Shown one piece after another: positions 8,668-61,732 of a stretch of 64,000 nucleotides of DNA (positions within the stretch are counted from its first letter, which is position 1; each line of letters starts with the position of its first letter). The notes under the pieces are model-generated. The model made no database searches, was not told the DNA's origin, and was given only the letters and a program-made list of their open reading frames with translations. This DNA is from Candidatus Saccharimonadota bacterium. Its GTDB lineage: Bacteria > Patescibacteriota > Saccharimonadia > UBA4664. The stretch is from assembly GCA_019352195.1 (NCBI GenBank), contig JACAFG010000005.1, positions 27,582 to 91,581 on the forward strand. Direction: 5' to 3'. A program made the position numbers and the translations under genes.

Positions 8668-8684
8668 ATAAAAACGCTTATGAT
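8656..8684 (+). promoter_or_regulatory. sigma70-like promoter TTGTGT-17-TATGAT of the giant surface-protein gene
   Basis: -35 TTGTGT 8656-8661, 17-nt spacer, -10 TATGAT 8679-8684. The same promoter with the same AAACGCTTATGATT spacer/-10 recurs at 14886-14914. Downstream is GGAGA-3nt-GTG. Confidence 0.5.
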
Positions 8685-8713
8685 TGGAACAGTATTTTTG
8701 TGTTTGGAGACCT

Positions 8714-11700
8714 GTGAGCAGACTTTGGCTGTTAAAGCTAAATAAGCGTCCCGCCATAACACGAATCTACACCGCCCTAGCGCTTGCCGGGCTGTTTTGG
8801 GTTGGACTTATCACGCTTAACATACCCACAGCTTCGGCTACTGGTGCAGCGGGAATCTATTCAACCATCAATTACCAAGGGCGTTTGCTGACTTCGACGG
8901 GCGCCGTGGTTCCCGATGGAACGTATAACATGGAATTTCAGATTTGGCAGGACGGCAACGGTTGTGTTACCGGCTGTACTTCGGCCAATGCGTCAACCAA
9001 CAACGGCGGTACGCTTAAATGGACCGAGGACTACGTTTATGGCACCGGCTCTCCAGACAACCGCGTGACGGTGAAAAATGGCTATTTCTCGGTGAGCCTT
9101 GGTTCGATTACATCGCTGTCTAGTGTCAACTTCAACTGGGACACAAACTACCTCACGACTAATATTGGTAATACTTCGACAGCCGCTACCTTTAGCGTGG
9201 CTTCGGGCGATGGATACATGATTCCGTTTAAGCGCCTCAGCGCTAATCCTTATGCCCTTAACTCGTCGCAGCTGGGCGGCCTCACCAGTTCACAGTACAC
9301 GCAGCTCGGCCAGGGTATCCAGGGTGCCGCAACTACCGGTACGACGGCGCTTATTGGCCTCAACCAAACCTCCACCGGTACCATTTTGGACCTGCAAAAA
9401 GGTGGCGCCGACGTACTGCTTATCGACTCAACTGGATCAACTTTGTTCCGTCCCACTACCGACTCGGCTATCGCACTGCAGGTACAAAAAGCCGGTACCA
9501 CCACGACGGTGTTTACGGTAGATTCGTCCAACTCGCGCATTGGCATTGGCACGGCGGCACCAGCCTACGCCGTGGACGCGGTGGGCTCGATTAATGCTTC
9601 CACGAGCCTCAAAGTTGCTGGAACTGATGTTTGTACCACGGCTGGCTGTACCGCTGATCCGGCCTCAGCTATCAAGAACCAAAACAGTGCCCAGCAGACG
9701 AGTGCCAACTTTTGGATTTCAGGCAGCGGACGCGCTGATACAAGTATTCTCACCCCTGGACTCGATACCGCCACTGGTGTTGCCCTTGCGATTGGAACCA
9801 CGAATGCTACGAGTATTAACCTCAACGAGAGCACCAATGTAGCCACGGGCAAAACTTTTACCACAAACGGCAGTGGTTTTGACGCTACCGGTAAACTTGG
9901 CATTGGCACTACCAGCCCGGCGGCCAACCTGGACGTACACAGTACCGCCACGACTGGAAATGCGCTGAGCGTTACGGCGAACAACCTAACCACCGGTATC
10001 GCCGTCAATGTCTCCAGTAGCCCTACCGCCGGGACAGGCGGCGCGCTTATTAATGCCAGTCAGTCAGGAACTATAACTACGTCTGGTACCGTGGGTGGCT
10101 CGCTGCTCAATGTGCAGCGCAGTATTACGGCCAATGTGTCAGCAGCAAGTGCGATCACGTTTGATTCTAAAACCACATCTTCGAGCTACACGTGGTCGCA
10201 CACCGTAGCCAGCCAAACGAACCGAATTTTAATTGTGGAATGTGATTCTTCGAGTGCAGCCACTAGTGCTACCTATAACGGCGTTGCTATGACTTTGATT
10301 GGCACCATCACGAACCCATCGAACCCATCAGCGTTAACCTTCTGGAAGCTCCTTGCTCCGGCCACTGGAACTCACGCGGTTACTATGGACCAAAACTGCA
10401 ACGTTGGTGCTGCTATAGGTGGCGTTTCCAGTAGTTGGTATAACGTTGATCAGACTACAGGCACAGGGACGTTCAGTAGCAATGACGCGGCGGCTAACAA
10501 TGTCTCGGTCAGCGTGGCATCGTTATTTGGCCAGGTGGTGATTGACGGAGCCGATGCCTACTTAAACGGTTATAGTTCATGGACAAATATTCCTGGCTCG
10601 GGTCAAACTATGCTCCTCAATCCTTCGTTGAGTTACGATTCGGTAGGGGCTAGTTATAAGGCTGGGGCCGCCACCTCAACTACTATGACCTGGAACTTCA
10701 GCGCTGGCGCTGGTGTACATATCTATATCGGTGGTTTTGCGCTTATTCAAGCACCGACTGGTTCCGCGGTAAACCTAGTGGGTTCGATTGTAAACCTTGG
10801 CTCCAACTGCACTAACACCGCGGGCGGATGTGCCGACAACAGTAGTATTTTGAGCCTAAACCAGCAGTACGCTAGTGCTTCAGGCGCTGTGGCAACGTTG
10901 CAGAATGCTGGAACCGGAGATATGGTCGATTTCCTGAACGGCTCATCGAGCATACTATCGGGCTTCGACTCGAGCGGTAACCTGTTTTTCAATAACTCTA
11001 CCTTCAAGTCCACGCTGAGTACGGGTACCCTCTCAGCGCCGCGATCGATCACGTTGCCAGACGCGAGCGGCACGGTGTGTTTGTCGGTAGGTAACTGTAG
11101 TGCAGCGGGTGGGTACATTGTCAATGGCACGAGCTTGCAGGCCAGCTCTAACTTCCATATTTCGGGCAGTGGAACGGCCGACACGAGCCTGTTGACCCCG
11201 ACCTTGGATACGGCGAGTGCTAGTGCATTGTCGATCGGAGTCACTGCAGCTACCACCATCGGCCTCGGCCGTAGCGGCCAAACGCTCAACATTGGCAGCG
11301 ATGCGATTAACCTCAATAACGGCTATTTGAATGTGGCAGGTACCACGTCGGCCACCAATTCGAAAGCATCGCTGGCTGGGACCGTGGCCTCGAGTACTAC
11401 TTCGCAATATGGGTTGGATAACGAAGTGGCCTTTAATCCGCAAGTAGCTATTACCGGCGCGGTGTATGGCAGCGTCAATATTCCCAACTTGTCGGGCAGC
11501 GCTCTGGCTGTTAGTTCGCTGCAAGGCTTTACCGCCGGAGTAAAAGAAACGGGCGGCGTTGGCAATTTTACCGGTACGGTTACGGACGCAATCGGGCTCA
11601 ACATTACCTCACCTCAAATCACGGGTGGTGGCAATAAATTTACCACCTACACGGGAGTCGACGTGGGTGCCAACTCCATTAACGGCGGTAACACCTCCGG

Positions 11701-14700
11701 TATCCTCACGAACAACGGCATCATCGTCGAGAGTATTTCGGCCGGCGCGGGTTCCGGTGGGACGGTTAATAACTACGGTATTAATCTCGCCCAGCCGAGT
11801 GGTAGCGGTACCGGCACGACCAACAACTACGGCATTAACATTCAGGGTGCGGGTGGTGGCTCTAACAACTACTCCATCTACAACCAATCGACGGCGGCCA
11901 GTTACTTCTCGGGCAATGTTGGCATTAACCAACTGACCACCGGCTCCTACAACCTGAATGTAAACGGCACGGCTAACTTTGCGACCAGTATTAATGTGCC
12001 GAGCATTACATCGAGTGCGGGCCTCACCTTGGCGACTACGGGGACGAACGGTCTGACGGCTGATACAGGTGGAGCAGGGACTATCAAAGTTGGTGCGGCC
12101 AACGCCAACAGTATTTTGATTGGAACAGCGACAACAGCCCAGGCATCTGGCGCGACAGGCACTATCTTCATTGGCAACACGAACTCAACAATTGTCGGTA
12201 TTTCGGGTCAAACGGTTGGTGTTGGTTCACCCTCCGGTGGCGCGCTGTTTATTACGGGCGGCGGTGTCAATGTGCAAGGTGCGTCGGCATTGGCGATGCT
12301 TTTCAATGTCACCAACACATCAAACAAGACCATCCTTCATGTCGATAGTAGCGCTAATGTGGTGAGCTTGGGCCAAACTTCAAACCTGACTGGCCAACTG
12401 CAATTTAGTAATGCGACGAACGCGTTTACGTCGACGATTCAGGGTAACACGGCAGCAACGGCGAGCTACACGTCGATTTTGCCCGGCGCGGTAGGGTCGG
12501 CTGGTCAATGTTTGACCGTGGCTAGCGTGGCCTCGACAACGCAAACCCTGGGTTATAGCGCTTGTGGCGGCGGTAGCTACGTAACGTTGCAAGGTGTTAC
12601 GCCCGGCACGGCCGATACTGGTAATCTCAATATTACTGGCACGGGTATCTTTGCTACTCAGATAACTTCGCCGATCGTTAAGACAACGAACCTGCGCCCA
12701 ACGGCCGACGGCACCTCGGCTATTCAATTCCAGAACGCTGCTGGCACCACTAACGTGTTGACGGTTGATACTACGAATAGTCGAATTAACGTAGGTACCA
12801 ATGGCACACCGACTGGGCAATTGTATGTTTCGGGTACTTTGCCGACGGCTGCGGCTGGATCGGTATCAACTGGCTCAGCTCCTAATAACATTTACGTTCA
12901 AGGTCATTACGCCTATACAGCCAACTATAGCTCTAGCACGCTCGGTATTTATGATGTCAGTAACCCCGCCGCCCCTTTCAGTGTAGGGTCGGTCTCTATC
13001 TCCATAGCGACCAATGTCTATGTTCAGGGTCGTTATGCCTATGTTACAAGCCAGGGCAGCGGTGGCATTGTCATTGTTGATGTCAGTAATCCAAGCAGTC
13101 CGATCAGTGTTGGCTCGGTAGCTACGGGGAGTAATCCCAAGAGTATATTTGTACAAGGAAGTTATGCGTACGTAGTCAATAACGGAGCTAGTACCATAAG
13201 CATTGTTGATGTTCACAATCCGGCAAGCCCCACAATCATCGGATCTACGGCTACAGGCCTCAATCCAAGCAGTGTTTATGTCCAGGGCAGGTATGCCTAT
13301 GTGATAAATAATACTGCGAGTACCTTGAGCATTATTGATGTCAACAATCCGGCAAGTCCATCCAGTGTTGGATCGGTAGCTACTGGCTCCAACCCAAATG
13401 CCGTCTTTGTTCAAGATAACTATGCATATGTAACAAATAACAGCGGTGCCGGGATGAGCGTCATTGATGTCTCGGCCCCAAGTGCGCCATCGAGCGTGGG
13501 TACCGTAGCAACCGGTACGTCTCCCAACGGTATTTACGTTCAAGGACGGTACGCCTATGTGGCAAATAGTGGCTCAAACACAATTGGCATTTACGATGTT
13601 GGTGGCGCCTACACGCAGCAACTGGAGGCGGGCGGAGCACAGCTAGGTATGCTGGCCGTGGATGGCAACTCTACGTTGGCTGGAGATGCCTCGGTGCAGG
13701 GCGGCCTGCAGGTAGGGCAGAGCGTCCAAATTGGGGGCGATGCCGGTATTAACGGTGGCTTGTCGGTGGGGGGCTCGGCGTCATTCGATGGTCCCGTGCA
13801 GGTAGGTTCATCGCTTACCGACACGACGCAGGTAAACTTGCAGCTCGATTCGACGAGCTTGTTCGCAGATAGCGGCACTTGCAGCACCACCACTAATCAG
13901 GGTGCCTTGTATTACAATACCAACACCAACGCCATCCGGAGTTGTGTGGGCGGAGCGTGGGAAGACGTGATAACGACGAGTGGTCTTGGCCTGGTATTAT
14001 TTGGTATTGTGCCCGACGGTGTAGCAACAACCGGTGTCGGCGACTTGGCTGGTGCCGGCGGATATAATTCGGGTCCGTGCAAAGTTTACATGAGCGGTAC
14101 GGCAAATATTATTGTCTGGAACTCGTGTACGGCGTACTCGAGTGGCCGCAAAGTGGCGGTGGCCGCCGGTACAGCGACGGTGAGTTCGAGCACGAGTGTC
14201 TTCCAAAACTTGTGTATCAATACATCGGGCGTGGCGGCGCTGGTGGGAACGGCTAACGCCACAGAAACTACCGCTGGCCTGTTCCCGGCCTTTTCACCGA
14301 GCGCACCAATACTGTGTTTGGCTACCATAAAAACGGCGACGGTAGCGAATAAAGTGGCGGCAATTTACGATACGCGCGTATATACCACCGATGACAAGAC
14401 CATTGCGACCATTGCAACTACTACCGGCCTTGGATCGATGGTCACAAACAACGGCACCCTCGGTCGCTATGCACCCACGAGTGCGGTAACCAACTCAATT
14501 ATGGGCGTGGTGGTGGCCTATAGCGGCACGGTGAGTACGGCAACGCCGAATGCGATTATTGTTACCTATGGTCCAGTGGCCATTAAAGGCACGGGTACTT
14601 CTGGCACGATTGCCCAGATGATTGAATGGGGTGCGGCCAACGGTTATGCCACCACGGTGGCGGCGGCGACGACGGCCACCAACCCTTATACGTATGCTGG

Positions 14701-14794
14701 TGTGGCCCAAAATACCAATGGTACCGTAGCGGCAGGCTGTGCTGTGTACACGGCATGTAGTGGGTCGTTGTTTACTACTTTTGCGCCAAGATAA
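8714..14794 (+). CDS. giant secreted cell-surface protein with LVIVD beta-propeller repeats
   Basis: The ORF track gives 8684..14794 (2036 aa) from a TTG that lies upstream of the predicted transcription start site (TSS). The likely start is GTG 8714, preceded by GGAGA, giving MSRLWLLKLNKRP... plus a hydrophobic core and ASA cleavage site. Seven tandem ~40-aa LVIVD-type repeats (YVQGRYAYV...IVDVSNP) lie at ~12890-13600. The protein is T/S/G/A-rich, with GIGTTSPAANLDV tail-fibre-like motifs. Confidence 0.8.
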   Translation: MSRLWLLKLNKRPAITRIYTALALAGLFWVGLITLNIPTASATGAAGIYSTINYQGRLLTSTGAVVPDGTYNMEFQIWQDGNGCVTGCTSANASTNNGGTLKWTEDYVYGTGSPDNRVTVKNGYFSVSLGSITSLSSVNFNWDTNYLTTNIGNTSTAATFSVASGDGYMIPFKRLSANPYALNSSQLGGLTSSQYTQLGQGIQGAATTGTTALIGLNQTSTGTILDLQKGGADVLLIDSTGSTLFRPTTDSAIALQVQKAGTTTTVFTVDSSNSRIGIGTAAPAYAVDAVGSINASTSLKVAGTDVCTTAGCTADPASAIKNQNSAQQTSANFWISGSGRADTSILTPGLDTATGVALAIGTTNATSINLNESTNVATGKTFTTNGSGFDATGKLGIGTTSPAANLDVHSTATTGNALSVTANNLTTGIAVNVSSSPTAGTGGALINASQSGTITTSGTVGGSLLNVQRSITANVSAASAITFDSKTTSSSYTWSHTVASQTNRILIVECDSSSAATSATYNGVAMTLIGTITNPSNPSALTFWKLLAPATGTHAVTMDQNCNVGAAIGGVSSSWYNVDQTTGTGTFSSNDAAANNVSVSVASLFGQVVIDGADAYLNGYSSWTNIPGSGQTMLLNPSLSYDSVGASYKAGAATSTTMTWNFSAGAGVHIYIGGFALIQAPTGSAVNLVGSIVNLGSNCTNTAGGCADNSSILSLNQQYASASGAVATLQNAGTGDMVDFLNGSSSILSGFDSSGNLFFNNSTFKSTLSTGTLSAPRSITLPDASGTVCLSVGNCSAAGGYIVNGTSLQASSNFHISGSGTADTSLLTPTLDTASASALSIGVTAATTIGLGRSGQTLNIGSDAINLNNGYLNVAGTTSATNSKASLAGTVASSTTSQYGLDNEVAFNPQVAITGAVYGSVNIPNLSGSALAVSSLQGFTAGVKETGGVGNFTGTVTDAIGLNITSPQITGGGNKFTTYTGVDVGANSINGGNTSGILTNNGIIVESISAGAGSGGTVNNYGINLAQPSGSGTGTTNNYGINIQGAGGGSNNYSIYNQSTAASYFSGNVGINQLTTGSYNLNVNGTANFATSINVPSITSSAGLTLATTGTNGLTADTGGAGTIKVGAANANSILIGTATTAQASGATGTIFIGNTNSTIVGISGQTVGVGSPSGGALFITGGGVNVQGASALAMLFNVTNTSNKTILHVDSSANVVSLGQTSNLTGQLQFSNATNAFTSTIQGNTAATASYTSILPGAVGSAGQCLTVASVASTTQTLGYSACGGGSYVTLQGVTPGTADTGNLNITGTGIFATQITSPIVKTTNLRPTADGTSAIQFQNAAGTTNVLTVDTTNSRINVGTNGTPTGQLYVSGTLPTAAAGSVSTGSAPNNIYVQGHYAYTANYSSSTLGIYDVSNPAAPFSVGSVSISIATNVYVQGRYAYVTSQGSGGIVIVDVSNPSSPISVGSVATGSNPKSIFVQGSYAYVVNNGASTISIVDVHNPASPTIIGSTATGLNPSSVYVQGRYAYVINNTASTLSIIDVNNPASPSSVGSVATGSNPNAVFVQDNYAYVTNNSGAGMSVIDVSAPSAPSSVGTVATGTSPNGIYVQGRYAYVANSGSNTIGIYDVGGAYTQQLEAGGAQLGMLAVDGNSTLAGDASVQGGLQVGQSVQIGGDAGINGGLSVGGSASFDGPVQVGSSLTDTTQVNLQLDSTSLFADSGTCSTTTNQGALYYNTNTNAIRSCVGGAWEDVITTSGLGLVLFGIVPDGVATTGVGDLAGAGGYNSGPCKVYMSGTANIIVWNSCTAYSSGRKVAVAAGTATVSSSTSVFQNLCINTSGVAALVGTANATETTAGLFPAFSPSAPILCLATIKTATVANKVAAIYDTRVYTTDDKTIATIATTTGLGSMVTNNGTLGRYAPTSAVTNSIMGVVVAYSGTVSTATPNAIIVTYGPVAIKGTGTSGTIAQMIEWGAANGYATTVAAATTATNPYTYAGVAQNTNGTVAAGCAVYTACSGSLFTTFAPR

Positions 14795-49105: not shown

Positions 49106-50353
49106 ATGCGACTGAGTCATAATTTTACGAAAACCCGCCGCGACGCCCCAAAAGATGAAACCGCTCGAAACGCGCAACTGCTTATTCGGGCTGGATATGT
49201 TCACAAGATGATGGCCGGTGTGTACGCTTACTTGCCGCTCGGTAAACTTGTTCTCGATAACATTGCGCAAATTGTGCGAGAAGAAATGAACGCAGTTGGT
49301 GGTCAAGAAGTGCAAATGACCGTGCTTCAGCCCAAAGAATTGTGGGAGAAAACTGATCGTTGGGATGACAAAAAAGTTGATAACTGGTTCAAGACTAAAC
49401 TGGCTAATGGTACCGAAGTCGGCGTTGGACTATCACATGAGGAGCCAATTGTAGACTCGCTGAAGGCGTTTGTCGGCTCATACAAAGATTTACCGATCAC
49501 GATCTACCAGATTCAGAGCAAGTTTCGCAATGAACTTCGCGCCAAGAGCGGTTTACTGCGCGGTCGCGAGTTCATTATGAAAGATATGTATACTTTCGCT
49601 CAGACTCAGGAAGAGCACACCAAGCTGTATGAGCAAATTGCTGAGGCCTATATACGGATTTTTGAACGATTGGGACTGGGTGACAGCACTTACCGTACCT
49701 ATGCGGATGGCGGTTACTTCACTGAGAAATTTAGCGACGAATTCCAAACCGTCAGTCCAATCGGTGAAGACACAATTTACGTCGATGAAAAAAAACGCAT
49801 TGCTATCAACAAGGAAATCTACACTGACGAAAACCTCGCCAAGCTGAACTTTAATCGAGCCGATTTGGTGGAAAAGCGTGGTGTCGAAGTGGGCAATATT
49901 TTCCCGCTTGAAAGTAAATATTCCGATGCGCTCGATTTATATTACGTTGACGAGAAGGGCCAACGTCAGTCCATTATTATGGGCTGTTATGGCATTGGAA
50001 TTAGCCGTCTGGTGGGTATGATTGCGGAGCATTTTGCTGATGACAACGGTCTCGTCTGGCCGGCATCGATTGCGCCGGCCGAGGTGCATCTGGTGGCGTT
50101 AGGAACTGACGCGGAAATTGTGGCGGCGGCCGACGATTTGTACCACGAGCTGACAGCGGCAGGGCATGAGGTTATTTATGATGATCGTGACGTGCAGGCC
50201 GGGCTGAAGTTTGCTGATGCCGATCTCATGGGCATGCCGCTACGCATCACCGTCTCTAAGAAAACTTTGGCCGAAGGCAGCGTCGAGTTTAAAGCCCGCA
50301 CCGAAGAGGAAACGCGCATGGTGAAGCTAGCAGACGTGATTACGGCGCTCTAG
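49106..50353 (+). CDS. proS: prolyl-tRNA synthetase (short form)
   Basis: Class II core motifs and a C-terminal anticodon-binding domain. 415 aa. Confidence 0.9.
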   Translation: MRLSHNFTKTRRDAPKDETARNAQLLIRAGYVHKMMAGVYAYLPLGKLVLDNIAQIVREEMNAVGGQEVQMTVLQPKELWEKTDRWDDKKVDNWFKTKLANGTEVGVGLSHEEPIVDSLKAFVGSYKDLPITIYQIQSKFRNELRAKSGLLRGREFIMKDMYTFAQTQEEHTKLYEQIAEAYIRIFERLGLGDSTYRTYADGGYFTEKFSDEFQTVSPIGEDTIYVDEKKRIAINKEIYTDENLAKLNFNRADLVEKRGVEVGNIFPLESKYSDALDLYYVDEKGQRQSIIMGCYGIGISRLVGMIAEHFADDNGLVWPASIAPAEVHLVALGTDAEIVAAADDLYHELTAAGHEVIYDDRDVQAGLKFADADLMGMPLRITVSKKTLAEGSVEFKARTEEETRMVKLADVITAL

Positions 50354-57083: not shown

Positions 57084-57551
57084 ATGAATACCATGAGCAA
57101 CGAATTTTTACTGACGAGTGACGGCATTGCCACGCTCAAAGAAGAGCTGAACACACTTATTAAAGTTGAGCGTCCCGACATTGCCGAAAAGCTTAAAGAA
57201 GCTAAGGCAGAGGGCGATCTTAGCGAAAACGCCGGCTGGGACGCCGCACGCGACAAGCAGGGCTTTGTGGAAGGCCGTATCTCAGAAATTGAGCACATTT
57301 TGAAGCACGCCAAACTCATTCAGGCGAAAAGCAGCACGTCGGTGAGCCTGGGTTCAACCGTTCATGTCGAGCTTGAAGACGGCCGTCAGGAATACACCAT
57401 TGTTGGCCCAACCGAAGCTAACCCCGATAAGGGCATGATTTCGGATCAGTCGCCTCTCGGTATGGCTCTGCTTGGCAAGAAGCCTGGTGAAGAGGTCGAG
57501 ATTACCGTCCCCAACGGGACCATGACCTACAAAATCGTCAAAATCGCTTAG
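57084..57551 (+). CDS. greA: transcription elongation factor GreA
   Basis: GDLSENAGWDAARDKQ acidic finger region. Confidence 0.9.
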   Translation: MNTMSNEFLLTSDGIATLKEELNTLIKVERPDIAEKLKEAKAEGDLSENAGWDAARDKQGFVEGRISEIEHILKHAKLIQAKSSTSVSLGSTVHVELEDGRQEYTIVGPTEANPDKGMISDQSPLGMALLGKKPGEEVEITVPNGTMTYKIVKIA

Positions 57552-57601: not shown

Positions 57602-57640
57602 ACAAACGCCACTTTCAGAAGAGAGTGGCGTTTGTGGCTT
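57602..57640 (+). terminator. terminator after greA
   Basis: 12-bp hairpin ACAAACGCCACT / AGTGGCGTTTGT. The ORF-track start of the next gene (57625) lies inside it. Confidence 0.5.
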
Positions 57641-57675
57641 TACCACAAGCTCACTCGAAAGGTACAATGGGGCGC

Positions 57676-59943
57676 ATGACAAACCCACAGACAACTGACT
57701 GGCTCGATAATTTAGTTGAGCAGATTTTGGTGGCGCGGCCGAAAGGCGAAATTATTGTGTCGAGCGGGCACTCGCCCTCGGGGACGTATCACGTCGGAAC
57801 CTTGCGTGAAGTTATGACGGCCAACGCGATTACCTGGGCCATACGACGGGCAGGGCGTGATGCTAAGCACGTTGATTTTGTGGATGATTTTGACGCTTTT
57901 CGCAAAGTGCCTCTGGGCATTGGGGTGCCCGAGAGTTGGTCGCAGTATTTGGGGCAGCCCCTGCGCGTGGTGCCTGATCCGTTTGAGTGTCACGAGTCGT
58001 ACGGTGCCCACTTTGTTACCGACTTATACGAAGGCCTCGCAGCGATTGGCGCGACGCCCGACGAAACGCTGTCGGGCTATGATCTGTATAAAGCGGGCAC
58101 CTACGCCGAGCAAATTGAAACGGCATTGGCTAAACTCGATGACATTCGTCATATTTTGACCGATGTTGGCGGTCGCCAGCTCGATGAGCGCTGGTCGCCG
58201 GTACAAATTTTGAGTGATAGTAATAATCTGCGTCAATGGAAATACGCCGGCTATAACGCCAGGACTAAAATGGTGAGCTGGACGGATGGTGACGGCGCAA
58301 CAGGTGAGCTGCCCATAGATACCGGGCGTATTAAGCTGGACTGGCGACTGGACTGGCCGGCGCGGTGGGCTAAGTGGGGAGTTGATGTCGAGCCATTTGG
58401 CCGCGATCACGCTACTAAAGGCGGGTCATACGATACGGGACGTGTCTTGGTGTCACAAATCTTCGGCGGTGAGGCACCCGTACCAGTCCCATATGAATTT
58501 ATTATGACGGTAGGCGAGACCAAGAAGATGAGTAAATCATCTGGTAACGTGTTAACGCCAAAAGATGCGCTAGAAGTTATGCCGCCTGAGCTCCTGCGCT
58601 ACTTCATTGTGAAAAACCGACCGGGGCGAACCCTTAATTTTGATGCCGGAGTCGGTCTGTATACCCTCATTGATGAGTACGTGCGTGAACGCGGATCAAG
58701 TTCGGCTGGCATTGCTTACGCCAATAGTGTGCTGACGACCGAAACGCTCAGCGATGTGCCGTTTAGCCATCTGGTGGCGGTCTCCCAGGCTGTTCCCGGT
58801 AATACCGAGGCTATTTATGAGGTGTTGGCCCGAACCGGCTATGCCAAGCAGGTGCAGTCTCAGCGCGATATTATTGCTCGCGAGTTGGTATTTGTGGCTA
58901 ACTGGCTGGCCAAACACGCCCCGGACAGCGTGAAGTTTAGCCTGCAAGCTGATCTGCCCGCCATGGAGTTATCAGAGGCGCAACAGGCATTGCTGGGCAA
59001 TCTAGCCGTGGCGATTCAAACTAATAATCTCGATGCCGAAGGCATGCATCTGGCAATCTACTCAGCTGCCGAGACGCATCAGCTCACGCCGGCACAGGCG
59101 TTTCAGGCGCTTTACCGCGTATTGCTCAACCAAGACTCTGGTCCCAAGGCCGGATGGTTTCTGGCGTCGCTAGCCGAGCAGGACAAGCCTTGGCTGGTAA
59201 AGCGGCTGAAGGCAGCCTCCGCTCCTCGTGCCGAGGTTTCGAACGCTCCTAAGTCGCTTGAGGCTGTGGTTGGCGGTAAGACGATATTTGCGATTGATCC
59301 GAAGGTTGTCGCGGCTTTTGCACAGCCATACGTGGGCTACGTCGTGGCTGATATTACGGTCAACTCAAGTGGCGACCAAGACGGTGCCTTGGCGCAAGTG
59401 AGCTTAGCCAACCGCGGTATTACTAAAGACACTATTACGGCCGAGCCGCTCATTGCCGTATGGCGTGATGTGTATCGCAGTTTCGGGGTTAAACCGAGCG
59501 ATTATCGTTCAAGTGTTGAGGCTTTGGTTCGGCGTGAGCTCGACGGCAAGCCGGCCAGTGTCAACTCAATCGTTGATTTGTATAATTTGGTTTCGGTACG
59601 CAATTTATTGCCCATGGGGGCTATGGATTTGGATCACGTGCATGGCACGATTCGGCTGCGGTTTGGCAAAGTCGGCGAAACGGCCGACCTGCTCGGTAAA
59701 GATAAGCCCGTGGATATTAGTTCTAAGCACGTCGTTTATGCCGATGACGACCATATTATTACGTGGCTATGGAATCATCGCGACGCCAAAGATACCGCAG
59801 TAACGACCGATACCAAGCACGCCATATTCTTCATCGACAGTGTTAGCGGGAGCGAAGTAGTGCAAACGGCGTTGGATGAATTAATAGCCGGCCTTGAAGC
59901 CTTGCCTGGTAATACGGTGCTGGCAAGTGGGGTTATCGGCTAG
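57676..59943 (+). CDS. lysK: class I lysyl-tRNA synthetase fused to C-terminal B3/B4-like domain
   Basis: SPSGTYHVGTLREV (class I LysRS HIGH region) and KMSKSSGN. The C-terminal ~230 aa carry the motif DLYNLVSVRNLLPMGAMDLDHVHGTIRLRFGK, which matches the PheT B3/B4 signature. The start is chosen at ATG 57676, 8 nt after TACAAT (leaderless). Confidence 0.8.
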   Translation: MTNPQTTDWLDNLVEQILVARPKGEIIVSSGHSPSGTYHVGTLREVMTANAITWAIRRAGRDAKHVDFVDDFDAFRKVPLGIGVPESWSQYLGQPLRVVPDPFECHESYGAHFVTDLYEGLAAIGATPDETLSGYDLYKAGTYAEQIETALAKLDDIRHILTDVGGRQLDERWSPVQILSDSNNLRQWKYAGYNARTKMVSWTDGDGATGELPIDTGRIKLDWRLDWPARWAKWGVDVEPFGRDHATKGGSYDTGRVLVSQIFGGEAPVPVPYEFIMTVGETKKMSKSSGNVLTPKDALEVMPPELLRYFIVKNRPGRTLNFDAGVGLYTLIDEYVRERGSSSAGIAYANSVLTTETLSDVPFSHLVAVSQAVPGNTEAIYEVLARTGYAKQVQSQRDIIARELVFVANWLAKHAPDSVKFSLQADLPAMELSEAQQALLGNLAVAIQTNNLDAEGMHLAIYSAAETHQLTPAQAFQALYRVLLNQDSGPKAGWFLASLAEQDKPWLVKRLKAASAPRAEVSNAPKSLEAVVGGKTIFAIDPKVVAAFAQPYVGYVVADITVNSSGDQDGALAQVSLANRGITKDTITAEPLIAVWRDVYRSFGVKPSDYRSSVEALVRRELDGKPASVNSIVDLYNLVSVRNLLPMGAMDLDHVHGTIRLRFGKVGETADLLGKDKPVDISSKHVVYADDDHIITWLWNHRDAKDTAVTTDTKHAIFFIDSVSGSEVVQTALDELIAGLEALPGNTVLASGVIG

Positions 59944-60104: not shown

Positions 60105-61337
60105 ATGATTGACGTAAAATACCTCCGCGAAGCCCCCGAAGAATACCGTCACGCCGCCAAGGAGAAGGGGATGGGCGCTGAGGCTATCGAAGTCGCGCTT
60201 AAATTAGACGCATCCCGCCGCCAATTGATCGGCGAAGCTGAGCCAATCCGGGCTCAGTTGAATATTAAAGGTAAGCCAACGCCCGAAGAGTTAACCAAGC
60301 TGCAGACCGCCAAGGCGAAGCTCGCCGAAATCGACGTCAAATTGCAAACGGTGGAAGCCGAGTTTGCTCAGGCATTACTGAGTATTCCCAACTTACTGGC
60401 TCCAAATACCCCTTCAGGCGGGGAAGAGCACAACCGTGAAGATCGTGCTTGGGGTGGTCAGCCAAAGCATGACTTTGAAGCCAAAGAGCATTTGGCGATC
60501 GCCGAAGCGCATGGCTGGATCGACTTTGAGCGCGGAGCGAAAGTGGCTGGCTCCAAGTTTTACTACCTCAAGGGGGCAATTGTGCGGCTTGAGCTCGCTG
60601 TCACTCAGATGATTTTTGATCGCTTACACCAAGACGGTCTTGAGCCCGTGCTCGTGCCGCACATGGTGAATTCGCGGGTGCTGGAGGCCTCGGGCTATCA
60701 GCCTCGCGGTGAAGAACAGCAATCTTACAAAATTGAAGGTGATGATCTAACACTTATTGGTACGGCCGAAATTCCGCTGACAGGGTTTTATGGCGATGAA
60801 ATTCTCAGTGAGGCTCAATTGCCGTCGGCTTTTGCTGGTCTTAGTCCCGCCTACCGCCGCGAAGCTGGGGCTTATGGTAAGTACTCCAAAGGCCTGTACC
60901 GGGTGCATCAGTTTAACAAACTTGAGATGTATGTCTTTTGTAAGCCGGAAGAAAGCGCCAGTTGGCACCAAAAATTAGTAAAAATAGAAGAAGATATCTG
61001 CCAAGCGTTGGAGTTGCCCTACCGGGTAGTACGGATTGCGGCTGGGGATATGGGTGCTCCGGCCTATGAAAAATACGATATTGAGTACTGGAGCCCCTTG
61101 GAACAGACGTATCACGAGCTGATGAGCTGTAGTAATGTGACTGATTTTCAGGCTCGCAGGCTAAATATTCGTTATCGCGCCGATGACGGCAGCGTCCAAT
61201 TTGTGCATACTCTAAATGGAACAGCGGCCGCGTTTAGTCGAATGCCGATTGCGATCATCGAAAACCATCAGCAAGCCGACGGCTCGGTCCGTGTCCCACA
61301 GGCGCTATTACCTTACTTTGGAAGGGAGTCCCTATGA
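60105..61337 (+). CDS. serS: seryl-tRNA synthetase
   Basis: N-terminal coiled coil and class II motifs. TATAAT 60090-60095 lies 9 nt upstream of the ATG. The ORF-track TTG start lies within the promoter. Confidence 0.9.
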   Translation: MIDVKYLREAPEEYRHAAKEKGMGAEAIEVALKLDASRRQLIGEAEPIRAQLNIKGKPTPEELTKLQTAKAKLAEIDVKLQTVEAEFAQALLSIPNLLAPNTPSGGEEHNREDRAWGGQPKHDFEAKEHLAIAEAHGWIDFERGAKVAGSKFYYLKGAIVRLELAVTQMIFDRLHQDGLEPVLVPHMVNSRVLEASGYQPRGEEQQSYKIEGDDLTLIGTAEIPLTGFYGDEILSEAQLPSAFAGLSPAYRREAGAYGKYSKGLYRVHQFNKLEMYVFCKPEESASWHQKLVKIEEDICQALELPYRVVRIAAGDMGAPAYEKYDIEYWSPLEQTYHELMSCSNVTDFQARRLNIRYRADDGSVQFVHTLNGTAAAFSRMPIAIIENHQQADGSVRVPQALLPYFGRESL

Positions 61338-61732
61338 TCAAACTAGATGTGTCCGGACGCAACTACGAGGTCGACAAGCGACTTAAGGATTACTTAGAAG
61401 ATAAAATTGGCGGTTTGGAGCGATATTTGCCCCGTCAACTTAAAGATTCGGCCGAAGCTGTGGCAGTGCTATCAGATGACAAAAGCGGCCGAGAAGACAA
61501 TCGATTTGTTTGTGAAGTTATTATGAAAGTGAGCGGCGAGAAGTTTGTGGCCAAAGAAGGCACTGTCAACATGTACGCCGCCATCGATATTGTGGATGCG
61601 AAGCTCAAAGCCCAGCTCGCTACGTTTAAGGATAAATACACGCTCGAGCCACGCCGCGCCAAGATGCTGGGACGCCTCGTGGGGCGGACATCTGAGGCTG
61701 ATGAACCCCTCGCAGAGCCTGCGGCCGAGTAG
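61334..61732 (+). CDS. hpf: ribosome hibernation promoting factor (RaiA/HPF, short form)
   Basis: MIKLDVSGRNYEVDKRLKDYLEDKI. Confidence 0.8.
   Translation: MIKLDVSGRNYEVDKRLKDYLEDKIGGLERYLPRQLKDSAEAVAVLSDDKSGREDNRFVCEVIMKVSGEKFVAKEGTVNMYAAIDIVDAKLKAQLATFKDKYTLEPRRAKMLGRLVGRTSEADEPLAEPAAE

Follow-up and report, generated by a model that had tools for sequence, protein, structure and literature searches.

The closest described relative of the element reported here is the canavanyl-tRNA(Arg) deacylase CtdA, an experimentally proven aminoacyl-tRNA deacylase (PMC10018355, PMC12449066) described only in the form of standalone anti-canavanine enzymes (PMC10018355, PMC12449066, PMC12268091). In the CtdA papers the family falls into two clades, one of which is uncharacterised and suspected of a different specificity. 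The aminoacyl pocket of the S. enterica enzyme is built from N105, G116, E118, C166, Q173 and I189; function is lost in N105A, in Q173G and on substitution of G116, while C166, described as strictly conserved in CtdA, tunes specificity (PMC12449066). The B3/B4 domain of PheT, the beta subunit of phenylalanyl-tRNA synthetase (PheRS), belongs to the same superfamily (PF03483), uses an asparagine to position the catalytic water, and offers a precedent for cis post-transfer editing within a synthetase. Here we describe a gene that joins a class I lysyl-tRNA synthetase (LysRS of the LysK type) to a full-length CtdA-like domain, found in a 64,000-nucleotide stretch of a Candidatus Saccharimonadota genome (contig JACAFG010000005.1, positions 27,582 to 91,581; the whole stretch is called the window below).

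In the textbook view, LysRS of class II guards against errors by pre-transfer cyclisation in its active site, and LysRS of class I by tight substrate selection. LysRS of either class has been described as having no dedicated post-transfer editing domain, with pre-transfer editing in the active site of class II; mischarging of tRNA(Lys) by the enzyme is known, and ProXp-ST1 and ProXp-ST2 are documented to edit it in trans (PMC7373986). Like the predicted activity of the domain studied here, ProXp-ST1/ST2 and the YbaK-type proteins of the INS superfamily are deacylases that clear mischarged tRNAs for several synthetases, LysRS included. They differ in having an unrelated fold (PF04073), in being free-standing and in acting in trans. 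We found no mention of synthetase fusions in the CtdA papers (PMC10018355, PMC12449066, PMC12268091), and no LysRS or arginyl-tRNA synthetase (ArgRS) fusion with B3/B4 or CtdA in those papers, in synthetase reviews or in the literature on the Candidate Phyla Radiation (CPR) and DPANN, of which coverage was incomplete. By term search, a Nat Chem 2026 article on 'tRNA-deacylase-directed discovery' contains neither LysRS nor lysyl-tRNA, and its lone 'fusion' is a maltose-binding protein tag. The deacylase fold and the design of a cis-editing synthetase are known, then, whereas the LysRS partner is new and the specificity probably is as well. The fused proteins themselves are already in public databases, labelled merely lysine--tRNA ligase.

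A complete class I LysRS followed by a CtdA-like domain

The gene and its parts are listed below. Residues are counted throughout from the ATG at 57676, not from the likelier ATG at 57667.

57667..59943, plus strand: whole gene, class I LysRS with CtdA-like B3/4 domain (open reading frame call, start inferred)
57697..58692, plus strand: class I LysRS catalytic (Rossmann-fold) domain, residues 8-339 (PF01921)
57790..57801, plus strand: HIGH-type signature HVGT, residues 39-42, inside SPSGTYHVGTLREV (sequence reading)
58525..58539, plus strand: KMSKS signature, residues 284-288 (sequence reading)
58693..59178, plus strand: helical C-terminal (anticodon-binding) part of LysK, residues 340-501 (TIGR00467)
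59221..59262, plus strand: flexible linker, about residues 516-529 (~14 residues), ...AASAPRAEVSNAPKS... (low predicted local distance difference test score, pLDDT)
59263..59940, plus strand: CtdA-like B3/4 domain, residues 530-755 (~226 residues), predicted aminoacyl-tRNA deacylase (PF03483, PDB matches, AlphaFold2 (AF2) model, Foldseek)

An earlier note, made from the sequence alone, had read this gene as a class I LysRS with a C-terminal, PheT-like B3/B4 domain. Its reading of the synthetase half is borne out by two models above their cut-offs: Pfam PF01921 (tRNA-synt_1f) matches residues 8-339 (E 9.5e-100, 334.4 bits, cut-off 27) and NCBIfam TIGR00467 (lysS_arch) residues 8-501 (369.8 bits, cut-off 147.55). 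All the motifs it quoted are present where it had placed them. SPSGTYHVGTLREV covers residues 33-46 (57772-57813), and in alignment A3 its G41 is invariant and its H39 nearly so, as K284, S286 and S288 of the KMSKS signature are invariant; DLYNLVSVRNLLPMGAMDLDHVHGTIRLRFGK, in the C-terminal domain, covers residues 634-665 (59575-59670). In the full-length AF2 model, helices span residues 363-515. Judged by these matches, the first 515 residues form a complete class I LysRS of the ordinary kind, predicted to charge tRNA(Lys). They look as normal as canonical LysK from archaea, spirochaetes and Saccharimonadia (~515 residues), and are 66-71% identical to unfused Saccharimonadia enzymes that share the synteny; the window enzyme adds a C-terminal domain of ~240 residues. 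A column-by-column comparison of 9 fused with 110 unfused enzymes revealed no consistent fused-specific substitution in the LysK core. The idea of a relaxed LysK active site that editing would offset was considered and set aside, since the same comparison gave no sign of it.

The C-terminal region matches PF03483 (B3_4) over residues 596-732 with E 6.4e-24 and 84.9 bits (gathering cut-off 29.3), and not a different domain. The label 'PheT-like' holds at the level of this superfamily but not in detail, where CtdA is far closer in sequence E-value, fold and identity. Searched against PDB sequences, residues 501-755 gave CtdA entries 9f7e (E 2.2e-18) and 9mkl (E 2.2e-16), and PheRS-beta with E 2e-3 at best. 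Foldseek against the PDB aligned the domain over its whole length with 9f7e and 9mkl at template-modelling (TM) scores of 0.77 and 0.83 and 27-28% identity, versus a TM score of ~0.62 and 15-17% identity for PheRS-beta. The superposition on 9mkl (TM 0.83 and 0.82, normalised by query and target, over 230 columns) includes the CtdA-type helical insert. The AF2 model of residues 530-755, built from 68 sequences, has a pLDDT of 95.2 and a predicted TM score (pTM) of 0.91. Sequence and modelled fold both show the domain to be homologous from end to end to CtdA, the standalone deacylase, which it matches in length (~226-231 residues), in its specific helical insert and in the retained equivalents of N105 and G116.

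We considered whether the domain might instead edit as PheT does, by hydrolysing Tyr- or m-Tyr-tRNA(Phe). Common membership of PF03483 and weak matches to pheT models speak for this, but the scores are marginal: the pheT model TIGR00472 gives the domain 27.9 bits, short of its 402.65-bit cut-off, and the PDB matches and identities are as low as given above. Among the E. coli PheT editing residues (R244, N254, Y255, H265, F267, A312, G318, E334), compared through the CtdA-PheT correspondence of PMC12449066, with direct alignment at the Asn, H265 and G318 positions, the Asn alone is common to both, H265 being replaced by Gly and G318 by Asp. PheT-specific helices and pocket residues (H265, G318, E334 and others) are missing from the window domain. 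Furthermore, the domain sits on a class I, monomeric-type LysRS, unlike PheT, which is embedded in a class II heterotetramer, and CtdA itself cannot replace PheRS editing (PMC12449066). A PheT-type activity is therefore very improbable.

The full-length AF2 model (pLDDT 89.9, pTM 0.70) shows two well-folded halves separated by a disordered segment, residues 519-525, where pLDDT falls below 50. The unfused relatives P0005, P0006 and P0008 stop at ...RLRLNK, just ahead of the linker.

Pocket residues and the proposed editing function

The motifs that carry the predicted catalytic and pocket residues are as follows.

59575..59586, plus strand: DLYN motif; N637 corresponds to CtdA N105 and E. coli PheT N254 (alignments; nearly invariant in A1 and A2)
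59611..59628, plus strand: PMGAMD; G648 corresponds to CtdA G116 (kept), M650 stands for E118, D651 is invariant (alignment)
59758..59784, plus strand: ITWLWNHRD; T697 stands for CtdA C166, D703 for Q173 (subfamily signature [CTS]WLWN[HY][RK]D)
59824..59841, plus strand: IFFIDS; F719 stands for the CtdA pocket residue I189 (alignment)

Two of the six CtdA pocket positions are kept (N637 and G648), and the other four are changed (E118 to M650, C166 to T697, Q173 to D703, I189 to F719). With these four residues in place of those of CtdA, canavanine is not the expected substrate. W67, S84, E86, R91, G119, D122, W168, N171 and D174 (domain numbering) are invariant in an alignment of 24 subfamily members, the closest relatives, at least 90% of which keep the catalytic Asn. 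Fused orthologues share 47-56% identity in the domain and 41-62% in the synthetase part; by this measure the domain has been kept to much the same degree as the essential synthetase part. Because the scaffold residues are kept while the pocket residues are changed, we infer an active deacylase whose substrate would be other than canavanine. With an acidic side chain at position 173 and hydrophobic ones at 118 and 189, the pocket would be well matched to an aliphatic chain bearing a terminal amine. As in CtdA, the presumed reaction is hydrolysis of the aminoacyl-tRNA ester, but the window domain is fused to LysK where CtdA is standalone, and its link is with LysRS rather than with canavanine catabolism or tRNA(Arg).

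We consider it probable that the gene encodes a LysRS to which a post-transfer editing domain has been added, one that removes wrong amino acids from tRNA(Lys). In this proposal, the N-terminal LysK would charge tRNA(Lys) while the ~14-residue linker tethers the CtdA-type deacylase domain. After mischarging of tRNA(Lys) by LysK, the tethered domain would capture the 3' end, either before release of the tRNA or on its rebinding. N637 would position a water molecule, the ester bond would be hydrolysed, and the cognate lysyl group would be excluded from the pocket. The wrong amino acid would most likely be a basic look-alike of lysine or arginine, possibly non-protein, taken up from a host.

The earlier note had left two roles side by side, tRNA binding or editing. 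Editing, as a predicted activity, is the better supported. A domain without catalytic activity could still be an extra tRNA-binding or chaperoning module that aids capture of tRNA(Lys) by LysK: appended tRNA-binding domains are common in synthetases, and B3/B4 is annotated as such a domain. Class I LysRS, moreover, needs tRNA for amino-acid activation (PMC7373986). Such a role nevertheless accords poorly with the kept catalytic Asn and pocket Gly and with the invariance of the pocket-lining residues D122, W168, N171 and D174. In addition, the closest relatives are free-standing enzymes encoded beside exporters and YbaK-like deacylases, and most Saccharimonadia LysK do without the domain. We regard purely non-catalytic tRNA binding as improbable.

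Distribution of the fusion and partners of the domain

Within Saccharimonadia the fusion is present in 9 of the 120 closest LysK clusters, namely the window enzyme and eight others whose LysK part is 41-62% identical to it. When 185,579 species genomes were scanned for the signature of the subfamily, [CTS]WLWN[HY][RK]D, the LysK fusion turned up in four CPR GTDB species genomes. We built quick neighbour-joining trees of LysK and of the domain, which show scatter and clade membership, not counts of gain and loss. In the LysK tree the nine fused enzymes are scattered among unfused ones, and the window LysK is 66-71% identical to the unfused P0005, P0006 and P0008, compared with 41-62% to the other fused LysK. 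The B3/4 domains of the nine, by contrast with that scatter, form one clade, which argues for a single origin followed by loss or by exchange within the phylum.

A further relative, locus L001, is syntenic with the window (PBP2 67%, GreA 66% and HPF 57% identical). Its LysK slot, between greA and serS-hpf, holds a 771-residue class II LysRS (L001:2156-4471) that ends in an AlaXM-like editing domain, which has HxxxH and CxxxH motifs and scores 100 bits, below cut-off, with NF040865. A free-standing B3/4 gene follows this LysRS gene with a 14-nucleotide overlap (L001:4458-5144), and its product is the nearest relative of the window domain (61% identity). As read from sequence and gene order, this locus has undergone a swap from class I to class II LysRS in which the putative deacylase was retained.

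The overlap in L001 shows that an adjacent arrangement of the two genes exists, and an error of sequencing or assembly might in principle have joined such neighbours in the window. The reading frame is unbroken, however, the same fusion recurs in eight other diverged clusters and in four GTDB genomes from independent assemblies, and the linker can be aligned among the fused proteins. The chance of an artefact is practically negligible.

Fusions in other lineages were collected from the signature scan, from a search seeded with P0298 (DPANN) and from an exhaustive phmmer search of 1.84 billion representatives, the 150 best of which made up the partner survey; this representative sampling is biased toward query-like sequences. 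In Babeliales, a single 755-residue open reading frame (L064) places the domain N-terminal to a complete class II LysRS. The same order is seen in P0178, P0246 and P0370, and the reverse, class II LysRS and then the domain, in P0351 and P0356. P0295 has the domain followed by LysK, and P0298 a distant LysK followed by the domain. Among the 120 DPANN LysK clusters nearest P0298, 62 are fused, 34 with a C-terminal and 28 with an N-terminal domain (among P0385-P0480); they are named Diapherotrites, Woesearchaeota, Nanoarchaeia or 'archaeon'. Their domains are 31-39% identical to that of the window, and we therefore take the DPANN fusions to be events independent of the Saccharimonadia one; their LysK parts are ~30% identical to window LysK. 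P0393 and P0400, also from DPANN (~1,010-1,020 residues), are triple fusions with AlaX-type domains (PF01411; in P0400 also PF07973). The suggestion that a B3/B4-LysK fusion is uncommon holds within Saccharimonadia (9 of 120) but not overall, given 62 of 120 in the DPANN set and further fusions to class II LysRS and ArgRS.

ArgRS fusions were seen in nine cluster representatives (P0307, P0320, P0327, P0334, P0335, P0338, P0339, P0378, P0381). In these, the domain stands N-terminal to a complete arginyl-tRNA synthetase, in one of them as two tandem copies. By analogy these proteins would be natural candidates for cis-editing ArgRS, perhaps against canavanine, and they are not mentioned in the CtdA papers (PMC10018355, PMC12449066, PMC12268091). 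No synthetase partner other than LysRS and ArgRS was found among the 150 best representatives. The DPANN LysK, Babeliales class II LysRS and ArgRS fusions resemble the window enzyme in that a CtdA-family domain is tethered to a synthetase whose amino acid is basic, but they are independent events. Most fusions of other lineages also differ in having a CtdA-like acidic pocket (NGDCEY or NGECEV, against NGMTDF in the window).

The domain could be active but work in trans on another tRNA, for example tRNA(Arg) charged with canavanine or another analogue, with LysRS a mere carrier or 'editing hub' in genome-reduced, host-dependent organisms. CtdA does act on tRNA(Arg) (PMC10018355), and CtdA-like domains are attached to ArgRS in the nine representatives above. 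LysE/ArgO-family exporters, which adjoin some free copies of the domain, handle arginine and canavanine besides lysine. AlaX-like domains, too, are fused to some LysRS (L001; DPANN P0393 and P0400), and the NGECEV pocket occurs on LysRS as well as on ArgRS.

The pocket types, on the other hand, are unevenly shared. The window type, with a hydrophobic residue at 118 and Asp at 173, was sampled in 181 proteins and is fused 13 times to LysRS, of both classes, and 0 times to ArgRS; the acid-118, CtdA-like types, sampled in 81 proteins, are fused five times to LysRS and nine times to ArgRS. The four pocket residues that differ from CtdA include C166, which tunes canavanine hydrolysis, and Q173, which is needed for it. 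Finally, there are at least five independent fusions to two non-homologous LysRS classes, and chance carriage is hard to uphold in their face. We judge action in trans on another tRNA, the chief rival reading, to be rather unlikely.

Several observations count against proofreading of tRNA(Lys) in cis. In L087, the closest unfused relative, synteny is identical and LysK lacks the domain, as do most Saccharimonadia LysK; the domain is dispensable and patchily distributed. The full-length AF2 model gives no defined cis geometry. AlaX canonically acts on tRNA(Ala) and yet is fused to LysRS, so a fusion need not imply specificity for tRNA(Lys), and some LysRS-fused and ArgRS-fused domains of other lineages have the NGECEV pocket in common.

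The free-standing copies of the domain, which the signature scan found in many Synergistota and Chlamydiae and in some Legionellales and Francisellaceae, have recurrent neighbours. A LysE/ArgO-type exporter of basic amino acids adjoins the free copy on the same strand in 12 loci (L024, L038, L040, L044, L060, L067, L070, L075, L079, L083, L084, L086), mostly of Chlamydiae, with Francisellaceae and one gammaproteobacterium besides. This neighbour belongs to PF01810, and its best NCBIfam match is 'L-lysine exporter' (168 bits, below cut-off), with ArgO second. In eight Synergistota loci, a gene for a YbaK-like deacylase (PF04073) is found at the free copy or no more than ~2 kb downstream of it, and in several the two genes overlap or abut. 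These contexts, together with a lysA-like decarboxylase gene directly after the fusion gene of the Saccharimonadia locus L088, fit translation quality control combined with detoxification of basic amino acids. An apparent B3_4-YbaK fusion in L015 proved to be an over-extended reading-frame call, the two genes being adjacent and unfused. A small ACT_7-like protein is encoded next in four exporter loci (Pfam check: L075 alone).

The domain family also includes many ankyrin-repeat fusions. The window pocket subtype is combined with ankyrin repeats in P0183, P0241 (a Legionellales protein), P0243, P0249, P0252, P0262-P0268, P0276, P0291 and P0301. Ankyrin repeats are typical of secreted effectors in intracellular bacteria, and by this analogy host tRNAs might be the target of some members of the family. 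Single proteins combine a GNAT acetyltransferase with B3/4, B3/4 with an amidase, and an ATP-grasp domain with B3/4 (P0343, P0353, P0255); these pairings may be detoxifying or biosynthetic.

Beyond the window enzyme we put forward, tentatively and with less assurance than for the editing role itself, that dedicated LysRS proofreading has arisen in several lineages. The two non-homologous LysRS classes, and ArgRS as well, would have acquired CtdA-type domains on separate occasions, for the most part in organisms that have reduced genomes and depend on a host (Saccharibacteria, DPANN, Babeliales), and the 'WLWNHRD' pocket would be a new specificity for a lysine-like amino acid that is basic and possibly non-protein. 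If so, a CtdA-type domain on both LysRS classes would make a new cis-editing synthetase and give the CtdA family a further specificity. The domain would then also hint at a so far unrecognised antimetabolite resembling lysine, relevant to episymbiotic and intracellular microbes, one that would threaten organisms importing amino acids from their hosts. The hypothesis lends itself to testing, as the fusion names the partner tRNA and six pocket positions set the type seen on LysRS alone apart from those linked with ArgRS and CtdA. Orthogonal translation with lysine analogues could, in addition, gain new tools from the fusions.

Start codon, neighbouring genes and other features of the window

The genes and the hairpin around the fusion gene are the following.

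57084..57551, plus strand: greA, upstream neighbour (open reading frame and synteny)
57603..57634, plus strand: terminator-like strong hairpin after greA (ViennaRNA, -27.6 kcal/mol)
60105..61337, plus strand: serS, downstream neighbour, 410 residues from ATG (TIGR00414, 428 bits)
61334..61732, plus strand: ribosome hibernation factor of the Ribosomal_S30AE type, hpf (open reading frame; orthologues in L001 and L087 are 57-71% identical, with PF02482 there)

The fusion gene lies in a single unbroken open reading frame on the plus strand, from a GTG at 57625 to 59943, with TAG (59941-59943) as the stop codon. The earlier note, which gave the gene as 57676-59943, had frame and stop right, but its start is less likely than the ATG at 57667. 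The protein measures 758 residues from 57667 and 755 from 57676, the start also used by NCBI, whose entry P0001, 'lysine--tRNA ligase [Candidatus Saccharibacteria bacterium]', is 100% identical to the 755-residue translation. The true start is probably 57667 (MGRMTNPQ...): homologues begin with M-x-x-M, an AAAGG lies 5 nucleotides upstream, and the GTG at 57625 is an unlikely start because the hairpin at 57603-57634 covers it.

The gene order of the window, mreBCD-type genes, PBP2, greA, lysRS, serS and hpf, is Saccharimonadia-like, and the order greA - lysRS - serS - hpf is kept across Saccharimonadia relatives. We found no tRNA gene or Rfam element in the window that hints at a special tRNA(Lys). 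The PBP2, GreA, HPF and LysK of L087 are 82, 77, 71 and 71% identical to their window counterparts. The window SerRS (60105-61337, plus strand) is 41% identical to that of L087 and 55% identical to that of the genome L010, where LysK is likewise fused. These values suggest that serS, beside the fusion junction, was replaced or recombined.

A second synthetase gene of the window, at 49106-50353 on the plus strand, encodes a 415-residue bacterial-type prolyl-tRNA synthetase (ProRS) without the INS editing domain. The TIGR00409/NF006625 match is split into two stretches that skip the insertion, and the protein also resembles NF008979, a 437-residue 'exception' ProRS model. The 603-residue ProRS of L088, a distant fused relative, has a tRNA_edit domain at the equivalent position, from which it would follow that ProRS lost a cis-editing domain here while LysRS gained one. 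Elsewhere in the window, a 2,036-residue open reading frame at 8684-14794 (plus strand), in which an LVIVD repeat is the sole Pfam match, probably encodes a large surface protein.

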